Positions 33,919-63,687 of a stretch of DNA of 64,000 nt are shown piece by piece. Within the stretch, counting starts at the first letter, position 1, and the number at the start of each line of letters is the position of its first letter. This DNA comes from Octopus vulgaris (lineage: Eukaryota). The stretch is taken from assembly GCA_951406725.2 (NCBI GenBank), contig OX597816.1, positions 67,704,001 through 67,768,000 on the forward strand, given 5' to 3'. Under the pieces are notes generated by a model that saw only the letters and a program-made list of their open reading frames with translations, made no database searches and was not told the DNA's origin. The translations under genes and the position numbers were made by a program.

Positions 33919-34034
33919 GCTCTGGTCCAGTGGATTGGTGCAATCAAACTCGAATTGATGGTCCTGGTTTTTTGACTAGTCCTGGCTACCCAAGACAACT
34001 CCAATTTTCGGGTGACTGCTTTTACCATATAAAG
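33919..34034 (+). CDS. Exon: CUB1 N-terminal part ([38 protein letters not shown])
   Basis: tttttcag acceptor, aag|gttaat donor, CUB motif G.LTSPGYP..Y....C.Y.I; phase 1 in, phase 0 out. Confidence 0.92.
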
Positions 34035-34290
34035 GTTAATATGAGAGTATATATAATATATATATATACATATTATAAAATAAGCGAAGTTTCAGATTGG
34101 CTGGTGTTTTTCAGATCTCTTAATGCAACAGTTCCTAACTAATAGGTATGGATGTGTGGTTAAGAAACTGGCTTTGCAACCACGGGATTTCGGGTTCAAT
34201 CCCACTATGCGGGCCTTGGACAAGCATCTCCCATAAGTTTGACCATATGAATGAATTTGATGGACAGAAACTGTGTAACCGCTCGTCATG

Positions 34291-34338
<48 letters not shown>

Positions 34339-62059: not shown

Positions 62060-62123
<64 letters not shown>

Positions 62124-63687
62124 CTTTCTACTATAGGCACAAGGTTTAAAATTTTTGAGGAGGGACTATTCGATTAGATCGACCCCAGTGTTCATCTGGT
62201 ATTTATTTTATCGATCCCGTAATGATGAAAGGCAAAGTTGACCTCAATGGAATTTGAATTTATGACGTTAAACCGTTCACCATGGAAAATATAAACAGAA
62301 ACTTGTATTCTGAGTCATGCCCTACCCGAAAATGGGAGTTTTGTCGTCTACGTTGATGTGTGACCCCGAGCAACTTTGAAGTCGCGCCGAATAAATCAAC
62401 CCCAGTACATTTTGTGTTGTTTTTTTTTATTTTTTAGCATGGTACTTATTTTATCGGTGTCTTTTTACTGAAGTGCTAAGTTGCGGGGATAAACAAACCA
62501 ACACTGGTTGTCAAGCGGAGATAGGGGACAGACACAAATACAAAGACACATAGATATATTCGACTGGCTTCTTTTAGTTTCCGCCTACCACATCCACTTA
62601 CAAGTCTTTAGTCGACCCGGGGTTATTGTAGAAGTCACTTGCCCATGATATATATATATTGTTTTTTAATTATAGGCGCAGGCATGGTTTAGTGGTAGAA
62701 AGCTTGCTTCCGAACCATATCGTCTTGGGTTCAGTCCCATAGGCAAGTAAGTTCTACAATAACCCAGGGTCAACCAAAGCTTTGTGAGTGGATACGATAG
62801 GCGGAAACTATATTGTGGTGAATTTGGAATAGAATTATGGAACATTATCTTTGAGGTTGGAGGAATGGTACAATCAGTTTAGCGACACTGAAAATACCTC
62901 ATAATATTTGGTTAAGTCCTTTATGTTTTGAGTTCAAATCAAGCTGAAGACGAATTTAATTTTCATCATAAAATGAAGAACTGTCAAGAACTTCGTAACA
63001 AATTTATGCAGTTCTGTTTAATACCAGGAATCAATATAATTGATTGTATTTTGAGAATTTTTATCTTAATCTTTTCTTTTTTTTTTTATATTTTCATTAA
63101 CAGATTTATTCAAATTCTCTAATCTTCAAAGACGTAGAAGAAGTTGATAATGGAACGTACAAATGTTTAGCTGTCGGCCCAACAGAGTGTTCTGCGGCGG
63201 CTGAGATGTCACTAACTGTCAATTTCAAGCATAACCCTAATAAAGGTAAAGACTCATAAATCAATATTACAACGTGAAATTTTGTATGTCGCTGTATGAC
63301 ACTCATGCTGATTGACACACTAATTGATTGATTGACGGACTAACATCAAACGAACTGAGTGACAGGTGTGCGCGAGTATGTGAATGTGTGTGTGTGTGTA
63401 TGTGTGATTCTTTCTTTCCCCAAACCATTCCCGAACAGGGTTTAACATGATAGACTAGAATCTTTTAATGATATTTTCCCACTTAACTGGACTCTCGGAA
63501 TATTATATACTAAGAATAAACATTAGAAATATTATTTCGCTTACATAGTATTATATATTTTTTTCCAGTTTGTGGTAAAAACAGCATTACGAAAAACTCA
63601 GAAAACATAGAGGCAAAAATCAAGAGTGGATACCCGGCTGCACGAGGTTCTGCACCTTGGTTTGTGCTCTTCGTTAGATCAGCTACG
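33919..63687 (+). CDS. Multi-exon gene, 5' and 3' incomplete: CUB-CUB-EGF-EGF-Ig-Ig-trypsin-like serine protease (MASP/C1r-like modular protease)
   Basis: Twelve exons read by eye, all with AG/GT boundaries and mutually compatible phases, total 1646 nt. They translate without stops into recognisable CUB, EGF, Ig and chymotrypsin-fold N-terminal motifs. Confidence 0.92.
35335..35511 (+). mobile_element. Penelope-like GIY-YIG endonuclease C-terminal fragment
   Basis: [49 protein letters not shown] fits the PLE pattern S.L..H...H....IL.....R.I.E...I....P.LN. Confidence 0.65.
36321..36617 (-). mobile_element. Penelope-like repeat, inverted partner of 33450-33748
   Basis: Shared blocks such as ctatagcacttattcagcattacctgacacctttgggt in opposite orientation. 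Confidence 0.7.
36535..36586 (-). ncRNA. Minimal type-I hammerhead motif, second copy with imperfect stem II
   Basis: Reverse complement reads gtct-ccgatga-agggatattattaataaatctccta-gaaa-cagctg-ta-agac. Confidence 0.6.
36887..37119 (-). mobile_element. SINE family B, about 75 bp upstream of the second CUB exon
   Basis: Reverse complement of family B. Confidence 0.85.
37195..37300 (+). CDS. Exon: CUB1 middle ([35 protein letters not shown])
   Basis: ttctccag acceptor, gtaagt donor, classic CUB motif AP.G.RI.L.F.DFDLE...C.Y.YL.I.DG; phase 0 in, 1 out. Confidence 0.95.
37516..37925 (+). mobile_element. SINE family A
   Basis: Matches 8303-8792. Confidence 0.85.
39436..39941 (+). mobile_element. 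Non-autonomous Helitron
   Basis: A|TCtatatatataaaa 5' end, 3' hairpin cccgagcatcgccggg, CTAG|T end. Confidence 0.85.
40619..40822 (+). CDS. Exon: CUB1 C-terminal part plus linker ([29 protein letters not shown]...TGFLAQFSF...LEKAL)
   Basis: tccaccag acceptor, g|gttagt donor, CUB motif IGRYCG...SSG..L.LRF.S....GF.A.F; phase 1-1. Confidence 0.93.
41009..41460. mobile_element. Composite element: about 138-bp inverted arms with hammerhead-like cores around a tRNA-like head and (AAT)n
   Basis: 41009-41146 is the reverse complement of 41323-41460; each arm has (C/U)UGAAGA-A-GGCUG..CAGC(U/C)-GAAAC; central minus-strand A/B-box-like motifs (tggcatagg, gagttcgattcc). Confidence 0.75.
41537..41771. 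repeat. Imperfect foldback palindrome
   Basis: Nested inverted blocks: taataaacacagt/actgtgtttatta, taatagtttcatg/catgaaactatta, cattttataaca/tgttataaaatg. Confidence 0.75.
42405..42608 (+). CDS. Exon: CUB2 N-terminal part ([34 protein letters not shown]...[20 protein letters not shown])
   Basis: tgtttcag acceptor, g|gtaat donor, SPGYP..YP.N..C.Y.I and LE...C..DYV.V.DG motifs; phase 1-1. Confidence 0.95.
42849..43247 (+). mobile_element. SINE family A
   Basis: Full-length copy. Confidence 0.88.
43480..43630 (-). mobile_element. Short Penelope-like repeat with variant hammerhead core (other copies at about 6565-6695 minus, 11865-12015 plus, 23816-23968 minus)
   Basis: Four homologous copies of about 150 bp next to microsatellites, consensus cttt-ctgtaga-a-gagc-gtag-gctc-gaaa-cg-ta-aaag. 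Confidence 0.6.
46032..46400 (+). mobile_element. SINE family B, dimeric body
   Basis: Head at 46032; body repeats with a period of about 184 bp. Confidence 0.88.
46672..46806 (+). CDS. Exon: CUB2 C-terminal part ([44 protein letters not shown])
   Basis: ttttccag acceptor, a|gtaaat donor, motif L.KLC....SSG.SL.L.F.T....GF.ATY; phase 1-1. Too short for the ORF track. Confidence 0.93.
47747..47792 (+). CDS. Micro-exon (46 nt): EGF1 first half ([14 protein letters not shown])
   Basis: ctttttag acceptor, cg|gtaagt donor, C...C.NGG.C motif; phase 1 in, 2 out, matching the next exon. Confidence 0.9.
47825..48240 (+). mobile_element. SINE family B, dimeric body, about 30 bp after the EGF micro-exon
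   Basis: Two tandem bodies, each ending gtaaagaaata. Confidence 0.88.
48926..49316 (+). mobile_element. SINE family A
   Basis: Full-length copy. Confidence 0.88.
50699..51562. mobile_element. Mariner-derived palindromic element made of two head-to-head 5' ends
   Basis: TA|CGAGGGCTGATCAATAAGTATC terminus and its reverse complement at the right end. + arm encodes [20 protein letters not shown]; - arm encodes [19 protein letters not shown] and [11 protein letters not shown]...[15 protein letters not shown] (mariner WVP.L-like motif). Confidence 0.88.
51689..52081 (+). mobile_element. SINE family A
   Basis: Matches family A. Confidence 0.85.
53373..53526 (+). CDS. Exon: EGF1 second half plus EGF2 ([51 protein letters not shown])
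   Basis: atttcag acceptor, aag|gtgaga donor, two CxCxxGxxGxxC motifs; phase 2 in, 0 out. Confidence 0.95.
54250..54353 (+). CDS. Exon: Ig1 first half ([35 protein letters not shown])
   Basis: tacttcag acceptor, tg|gtaagt donor; B-strand Cys and C-strand Trp codon split across the intron; phase 0 in, 2 out. Confidence 0.88.
54635..55345 (-). mobile_element. RTE-clade LINE 3' fragment with (GAT)n tail
   Basis: Minus-strand [28 protein letters not shown] (RRLRWxGHVxRM motif); tail at about 54635. Confidence 0.8.
55370..55667 (-). mobile_element. SINE family C variant (same head, different 3' part)
   Basis: Head homologous to 1224; 3' region diverges after ctttcgcc..aa.t..tctcact. Confidence 0.7.
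57020..57414 (-). mobile_element. SINE family B, dimeric body
   Basis: Reverse complement of the 699-1093 arrangement. Confidence 0.85.
57561..57784. mobile_element. Mariner-type MITE with about 28-bp terminal inverted repeats
   Basis: acgaggggacgctgaaaagttcttggct / agccagttacttttcagcatcccttcgt. Confidence 0.7.
57945..58123 (+). CDS. Exon: Ig1 second half ([40 protein letters not shown]...[10 protein letters not shown])
   Basis: atgttag acceptor, c|gtaagt donor, WFRNG and L.I..V...D.A.Y.C Ig motifs; phase 2 in, 1 out. Confidence 0.93.
58164..58505 (-). mobile_element. Non-autonomous Helitron, 40 bp downstream of an Ig exon
   Basis: Minus-strand A|TCtctatatatataaacggc 5' end similar to 27292; cccggc/gccggg hairpin and CTAG|T at 58164-58167. 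Confidence 0.82.
59082..59218 (+). CDS. Exon: Ig2 first half ([45 protein letters not shown])
   Basis: tttgcag acceptor, c|gtaagt donor, I-set motif QP.N.SV..G.V.L.C...W.KDG; phase 1 in, 0 out. Confidence 0.93.
59555..59744. repeat. Long near-perfect palindrome (about 91-bp arms, 7-nt loop ccaaacc)
   Basis: ...ataggattccttgcacgctagaaggaacagctaaagt-ccaaacc-actttagctgttctttctagcgtgcaaggaatcctat... Confidence 0.92.
60770..62036 (+). pseudogene. Decayed Helitron RepHel (Rep C-terminus and PIF1-type helicase) inside an intron
   Basis: Fragments [67 protein letters not shown] (Walker A), [23 protein letters not shown]; many stops and frameshifts. Confidence 0.92.
63104..63245 (+). CDS. Exon: Ig2 second half ([47 protein letters not shown])
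   Basis: Long polypyrimidine tract plus aacag acceptor, g|gtaaag donor, SL.F..V...D.GTY.C motif; phase 0 in, 1 out. Confidence 0.94.
63569..63687 (+). CDS. Exon: activation linker and start of trypsin-like protease domain ([40 protein letters not shown])
   Basis: ttttccag acceptor, acg|gtaaga donor; CG upstream of a K-I..G activation site followed by A..GSAPW.V, typical of the S1A protease N-terminus; phase 1 in. Confidence 0.88.

Follow-up and report, generated by a model that had tools for sequence, protein, structure and literature searches.

A predicted octopus serine protease with three CUB, two EGF and two Ig modules, MASP-like in layout and distinct from MASP, C1r and C1s in architecture

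MASP-1/2/3, C1r and C1s carry the modules CUB-EGF(Ca)-CUB, then a stalk of two CCP modules, then a trypsin-type S1 serine protease (SP) domain. The part of PMC11312191 used here describes MASP-like proteases (MASPLs) of arthropods, molluscs and annelids that have no CCPs, some with two IG domains instead; it counts Euprymna scolopes AFV94411.1 and an Octopus sinensis protein among them, places MASPLs near vertebrate C1s, and records classical MASPs also in echinoderms and amphioxus. For one mollusc protein of this kind, oyster CgMASPL-1, lectin binding and association with C3 are given in the portion of PMC8605247 consulted, together with the architecture CUB4-LDLa3-SP. MASP-related molecules (MReM) are cited in PMC9835746, so far as its relevant section goes, as proposed protostome stand-ins for MASP, with the route of C3 activation called unresolved, and C3, C1S, MBL and ficolin-like transcripts are listed for O. 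vulgaris haemocytes in the section of PMC4199593 seen. Here we describe a gene lying partly in a 64,000-nucleotide stretch of the Octopus vulgaris genome (GCA_951406725.2, contig OX597816.1, positions 67,704,001 to 67,768,000 of the forward strand; the window), whose predicted product is an Ig-bearing protease of the MASP-like kind.

Twelve small exons in the second half of the window have AG/GT ends and compatible phases throughout, and joined together they give 548 codons without a stop, terminating in CG...K/IKSG...GSAPW (the slash marks the predicted cleavage). Both the in-phase exon set over this span and the protein end had been proposed in an earlier sequence-only reading, and both stand. 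In a control made of random concatenations of equally long window segments, 0/20,000 were stop-free, the fewest stops being seven, and chance assembly of the exons was thereby ruled out. Pfam scans of single exons, made for 11 of the 12 (the 46-nt exon 47747-47792 is too short), matched CUB in five, EGF in one and Ig weakly in three, with no match in two. The earlier reading had also looked to the sequence past 64000 for the exons with the catalytic His, Asp and Ser, and the two remaining S1 exons were indeed found there, 1.5 kb and 8.5 kb downstream. Further exons lie upstream, and the complete gene has 17 exons over 151,566 bases, with longest introns of up to 66 kb, and encodes 922 residues in the order leader-CUB-CUB-CUB-EGF-EGF-Ig-Ig-S1 protease. 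All 12 exons of the window are the middle of this one real gene:

G000:C3:67625392-67625482, + strand: exon 1, ATG and leader, 79 kb upstream of the window (orthologue queries)
window-equivalent -12381..-12219 and -11698..-11505, + strand: exons 2-3, CUB1, 12 kb upstream (orthologue queries)
1..33918, + strand: part of intron 3 (the larger part of its 45.4 kb)
33919..34034, + strand: exon 4, start of CUB2 (spliced frame, Pfam)
37195..37300, + strand: exon 5, middle of CUB2 (spliced frame, Pfam)
40619..40822, + strand: exon 6, end of CUB2 and flexible linker (spliced frame, Pfam, AlphaFold model)
42405..42608, + strand: exon 7, first part of CUB3 (spliced frame, Pfam)
46672..46806, + strand: exon 8, end of CUB3 (spliced frame, Pfam)
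47747..47792, + strand: exon 9 (46 nt), first half of EGF1 (spliced frame, orthologue comparison)
53373..53526, + strand: exon 10, end of EGF1 and EGF2 (spliced frame, Pfam)
54250..54353, + strand: exon 11, first half of Ig1 (spliced frame, orthologue comparison)
57945..58123, + strand: exon 12, second half of Ig1 (spliced frame, Pfam)
59082..59218, + strand: exon 13, first half of Ig2 (spliced frame, Pfam)
63104..63245, + strand: exon 14, second half of Ig2 (spliced frame, Pfam)
63569..63687, + strand: exon 15, Cys660 (predicted interchain link), predicted activation site Lys675/IKSG, start of the S1 domain
63688..64000, + strand: start of intron 15
window-equivalent 65511-65731, + strand: exon 16, His718, Cys740 and Asp767, 1.5 kb downstream of the window (motif scan, Pfam trypsin search)
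window-equivalent 65729-65731 / 72504 (L001:1729-1731 and 8504): alternative versus consensus donor, last intron
window-equivalent 72504-72957, + strand: exon 17, Cys787, Cys809, Asp862, Ser868 (AGT codon) and stop, 8.5 kb downstream

The order first proposed, CUB-CUB-EGF-EGF-Ig-Ig-protease, thus stood for the EGF pair, the Ig pair and the protease, and its two CUBs became three because the CUB1 exons lie upstream of the window. The proposal of a single gene encoding a modular S1 zymogen, in which Ig replaces CCP, was right. A local search of up to 60 kb upstream did not find the signal exon because the leader exon sits 79 kb upstream. AATAAA occurs after exon 17, at window-equivalent 73033 and 73045, and a search of assembly G000 with a stricter first look found one locus alone that matched full length. 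With the leader exon set aside, the model of the other 16 exons shares 885 of 891 residues (99.3% identity) with O. sinensis XP_029633908.1, annotated as 'MASP1-like', and the Euprymna orthologue AFV94411.1 (P0138), at 52.9% identity, keeps the order CUB3-EGF2-Ig2-SP.

In the protease domain the catalytic triad His718, Asp767 and Ser868 is in place, the GDSGGP motif is kept, and Asp862 occupies the specificity pocket (Asp189). The predicted activation site Lys675/IKSG is accompanied by the Cys660/Cys787 pair (the Cys1-Cys122 link), and on the 99.3% identical P0122 the Pfam Trypsin profile matches over positions 1-220 of 220 at 1.3e-50. The domain is accordingly classed as S1A trypsin-type with a complete set of active-site residues, and is predicted to be active. 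Mollusc members of the family have non-canonical new N-termini (IKSG, IQSG, ISRG, IYGG) and chelicerate members mostly IVGG or IIGG.

The domain also carries an unusual pair of cysteines. Cys809 replaces the usual Trp141 (GWG), and a second cysteine, Cys740 in the 70s loop, aligns to thrombin position 73, in what we take to be thrombin-type numbering. Among 549 protease domains, Cys141 was present in 40, all of which (40/40) also have the 70s-loop cysteine; three have only the latter and 506 neither. Since the named sequences among the 40 are all molluscan and many of the 40 are near-copies, they count as one evolutionary event and not as 40. From the pairing we infer a Cys740-Cys809 disulfide.

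The N-terminal modules were compared in a 40-row family alignment, using positions that we presume, from the CUB literature, to form the calcium site. The Y-E-D-D pattern is found in CUB1 of 35/40 rows and in CUB3 of 37/40; the octopus protein has YEDD in CUB1, YEDN in CUB3 (its last position is Asp in Euprymna) and a degenerate site in CUB2. CUB1 and CUB3 thus match the pattern of calcium-binding CUBs and are predicted to bind calcium. The EGF_CA profile reaches 17.6 bits, below its cut-off of 27. Two EGF-like modules follow CUB3 in 15/15 mollusc rows (four of these labelled by cluster or tree position) and a cysteine-free linker in the other 25. No Sushi/CCP match was found at E<=0.01 in three orthologues, which have two Ig domains there instead. 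In the AlphaFold model (mean predicted local distance difference test score 77, predicted template modelling score 0.38) the individual folds are supported. Membership of the tolloid or neuropilin families was rejected because an S1 protease follows and Pfam gives neither astacin nor FA58C.

A family search with the EGF-to-protease part as query returned 329 proteins at E<=1e-30, and from the 120 listed we picked 31 matches which, with the octopus protein, make 32 Ig and trypsin proteins. Ig and trypsin were confirmed in 32/32, with three CUBs in 20, two in four, one in one and none in seven, and no Sushi at 1e-6 in any of them. The named CUB-bearing members among the matches listed come from cephalopods, gastropods, bivalves, ticks, mites, spiders, scorpions and hemichordates, so that 'mollusc-type', as the gene had been called, is too narrow a term for a CUB-Ig-Ig-SP family that extends to chelicerates and hemichordates. 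The Ig-SP unit also occurs with TARSH_C in Lineus (P0059), with chitin-binding CBM_14 in Owenia (P0082), with an extra Ig in Holothuria (P0119) and with EGF/LDLa/Fic in Branchiostoma (P0044); accessory modules around the unit seem often to be swapped.

Protease-domain trees were built from 56 domains and 249 columns with MASP-1/2/3 and thrombin left out, which limits what they say of kinship to those proteins; the 120 matches listed for a C1r-like query had included C1r/C1s but none under the name MASP-1/2/3, and a representative search had given mainly CUB, EGF and protease repeat proteins. In the LG+G4 tree 31 invertebrate rows cluster together (97/91), with C1r/C1s (100/99), the clotting factors and the factor C-like proteins outside their group, and a mixture-model tree recovered the group at 89/92 (81 in its quick version). 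Most of its rows bear Ig (P0404 has none at 1e-8), hemichordate, echinoderm and amphioxus rows are included, and the octopus protein and AFV94411.1 form a 100/100 clade. A FastTree of 95 domains split the molluscs from the remaining Ig-SP rows, with near-zero support for doing so. Approximately unbiased (AU) tests did not reject a joint clade with C1r/C1s, either for the molluscs (p 0.265) or for all 31 rows (p 0.355). As a lead, Atlas look-alikes after the family's own cluster were PAMR1, C1s, MASP-2, MASP-1 and C1r at 0.83-0.85.

The Ig-bearing MASPLs AFV94411.1 and XP_029633908.1 are direct orthologues of the octopus protein, with a common CUB3-EGF2-Ig2-SP order and no essential difference. 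The features of the Ig-type MASP-like class were all found, namely CUBs, two IG domains and Tryp_SPc, no CCP, and orthology to listed members. The first reading had noted a resemblance to protostome 'MASP-related molecules'; a place among the invertebrate MASP-like proteases is upheld, in that AFV94411.1 is named a MASPL in the part of PMC11312191 used here. Like MASP-1/2/3, C1r and C1s, the octopus protein has CUBs bearing calcium-site residues at its N-terminal end, EGF, a stalk of two modules, an S1 domain of trypsin type, an AGY serine and, as predicted here, a two-chain zymogen form. By its predicted architecture it is MASP-like in layout and is not a MASP, C1r or C1s, whose module order it does not have. 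We assume that the gene probably corresponds to one of MReM1/MReM2 (Gorbushin 2019, as cited in PMC9835746); literature searches for MReM listed a single study that cites them, as preprint and as journal article.

The product of the gene, a CUB3-EGF2-Ig2 trypsin-type protease, is in our reading probably a secreted zymogen that probably starts or relays a haemolymph defence cascade, a reading to which we give an even chance. In its favour we count the orthologues listed among the MASPLs, the calcium-site pattern of CUB1 and CUB3, the Atlas look-alikes (as a lead) and the C3-like and lectin transcripts given for O. vulgaris haemocytes in PMC4199593. In such a cascade CUB1 and CUB3, by binding calcium, would attach the zymogen to a partner, for example a lectin or C1q-like recogniser, and the EGF-EGF-Ig-Ig stalk would hold the protease in place in the way that the CCP pair serves MASPs. 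IKSG would be freed when the chain is cleaved after Lys675, with Cys660-Cys787 keeping the two chains together, and a downstream zymogen or C3-like protein would then be the substrate, cut on the far side of an Arg or Lys.

Several observations weigh against this proposal. The octopus order CUB-CUB-CUB-EGF-EGF differs from the CUB-EGF(Ca)-CUB of MASP/C1r/C1s, and its stalk is Ig-Ig with no CCP where theirs is CCP-CCP. Its protease domain groups with invertebrate Ig-SP proteases and apart from C1r/C1s (MASP-1/2/3 not being among the tree rows), its best matches in the PDB are thrombins, and its predicted new N-terminus IKSG is non-canonical. The results for CgMASPL-1, the only functional data that came to light, are not transferable to the octopus gene because that protein is CUB4-LDLa3-SP: both are mollusc multi-CUB S1 proteases without CCP, of AGY type and with histidine-loop cysteines, whereas four CUB and three LDLa modules, and no Ig or EGF, are listed for CgMASPL-1 in the portion of PMC8605247 consulted. 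Our literature search, which left subscription journals largely uncovered, turned up no functional work on any Ig-type member, and 'MASP' is absent from the main text of PMC3349304, PMC13365339, PMC10672478 and PMC8995041.

The alternative that survives best, improbable in our view yet still to be reckoned with, is a developmental, reproductive or matrix protease with no immune role, whose CUB and EGF modules would dock on extracellular matrix or egg coats in the manner of tolloid or ovochymase. It would fit a single conserved full-length locus in G000 and a family spread across bilaterian phyla, and tandem CUBs with EGF are the docking region of tolloid and cubilin too, the top PDB sequence match for the protein being the cubilin CUBs. 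The protease domain, however, is separate from the ovochymase/TMPRSS outgroup and belongs to the group that also holds C1r/s, clotting factors and factor C-like proteases.

A thrombin-like protease for wound sealing or clotting, and not for complement activation, appears unlikely. Thrombins, among the vitamin-K-dependent clotting proteases, have the closest solved protease domains (152 bits by sequence, template modelling score to the target ~0.89 by fold), but thrombin entries fill the PDB match lists and so hide the rank of MASP and C1s. The Ser195 codon is of AGY type and that of Ser214 TCN, with Tyr/Phe at position 225 in most relatives (Ile in the octopus gene, Tyr in Euprymna), a marker set that we take to define the lineage of thrombin, C1r/s and factor C. 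Against clotting, the octopus protein has no Gla or kringle domains and lies in a separate group from clotting factors in the trees (which do not include thrombin), and cephalopod wounds are thought to be sealed mainly by cells.

Slightly less probable again, and in our judgement very unlikely, is a true MASP/C1r/C1s orthologue whose CCPs gave way to Ig, and whose CUB and EGF modules changed order, through domain shuffling. The AU tests and the placement near C1s in PMC11312191 are on its side; the separate 31-row Ig-SP group of both careful trees, with its hemichordate, echinoderm and amphioxus rows, is not. As classical MASPs are reported also from echinoderms and amphioxus in the part of PMC11312191 used here, this points to two parallel families.

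The annotation of the locus bears on a last alternative. The gene, which had been called hidden, is annotated in both O. sinensis and O. vulgaris, where database models carry identical exons. In two O. vulgaris models, P0005 and P0126, the last intron begins at a donor (gtgtaa) 2 nt upstream of the consensus gtaagt, which shifts the frame and loses Ser195; this is probably an annotation error but may be alternative splicing. The O. bimaculoides gene is annotated as two proteins of 395 aa and 523 aa, and where the split models P0123 and P0125 face each other, their ends correspond to intron sequence of the O. vulgaris gene just upstream of exon 47747. Full-length 923-aa orthologues are found on Logan contigs of 3.1-3.6 kb (cuttlefish and bobtail-squid clusters), and a contig of that size with an open frame of 2.8 kb could not also hold the introns of the octopus gene, which gives indirect support for one transcript. 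Read mapping over the Ig2-to-protease stretch in four runs gave no exon junction among the 15 joints listed of 214, intronic repeats having swamped the signal. That there are two genes, one for the CUB part and one for the EGF-Ig-protease part, or a truncated and inactive protease, is scarcely credible: the split O. bimaculoides annotation and the two models ending without Ser195 would suggest it, but the former meets in intron sequence, the latter use an off-consensus donor, 10/12 models checked keep the frame to GDSGGP, and squid and cuttlefish contigs hold the whole frame. The O. sinensis isoforms P0124 and P0122 differ by one residue at junction 40822/42405, which suggests a tandem acceptor or donor.

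The defence-cascade reading would make the octopus gene a member of a candidate family for C3 activation in protostomes, which are described, in the section of PMC9835746 used here, as without classical MASP/C1r/C1s. Since gene and family were already catalogued, its value is that of a target for functional tests and not of a discovery. What is gained is a complete model, catalytically intact by sequence, to set against two frameshifted database models and a relative annotated in two pieces; testable features are also named: cleavage at K675, the CUB1/CUB3 calcium sites and Cys740-Cys809. We further put forward, tentatively and as a doubtful proposal, that the CUB-Ig-Ig proteases are no reshuffled MASP but an ancient bilaterian lineage of their own, next to the complement and clotting proteases. 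Molluscs, chelicerates and invertebrate deuterostomes would have retained this lineage and vertebrates apparently lost it, and it would supply the missing protostome complement initiator; molluscs would have gained the two EGFs and a Cys73-Cys141 disulfide that links the 70s loop with the activation domain and alters zymogen switch-on. An anaphylatoxin-domain search of G000 gave no match, its control being likewise unmatched.

Positions 1-33918 of the window, within the 45.4 kb intron, are rich in microsatellites and repeats; a scan of them for exon candidates gave nothing convincing, and no systematic search for nested genes was made. A PIF1-like helicase fragment at 61841-62035 (+ strand; Pfam PF05970, E 2.3e-17), within intron 59219-63103 and ending in a stop, is probably a Helitron remnant, and broken frames at ~54780-55350 (- strand) resemble what we take to be the end of a non-long-terminal-repeat retrotransposon reverse transcriptase. 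An element at 50703-51559 with 196-nt inverted arms, 82% complementary, is presumably a decayed transposon of Tc1/mariner type. A 40-nt inverted pair around 158 nt (57554-57791) and an 83-nt near-perfect hairpin (95%; 59563-59735), both intronic, are likely remnants of miniature inverted-repeat transposable elements or foldback elements.

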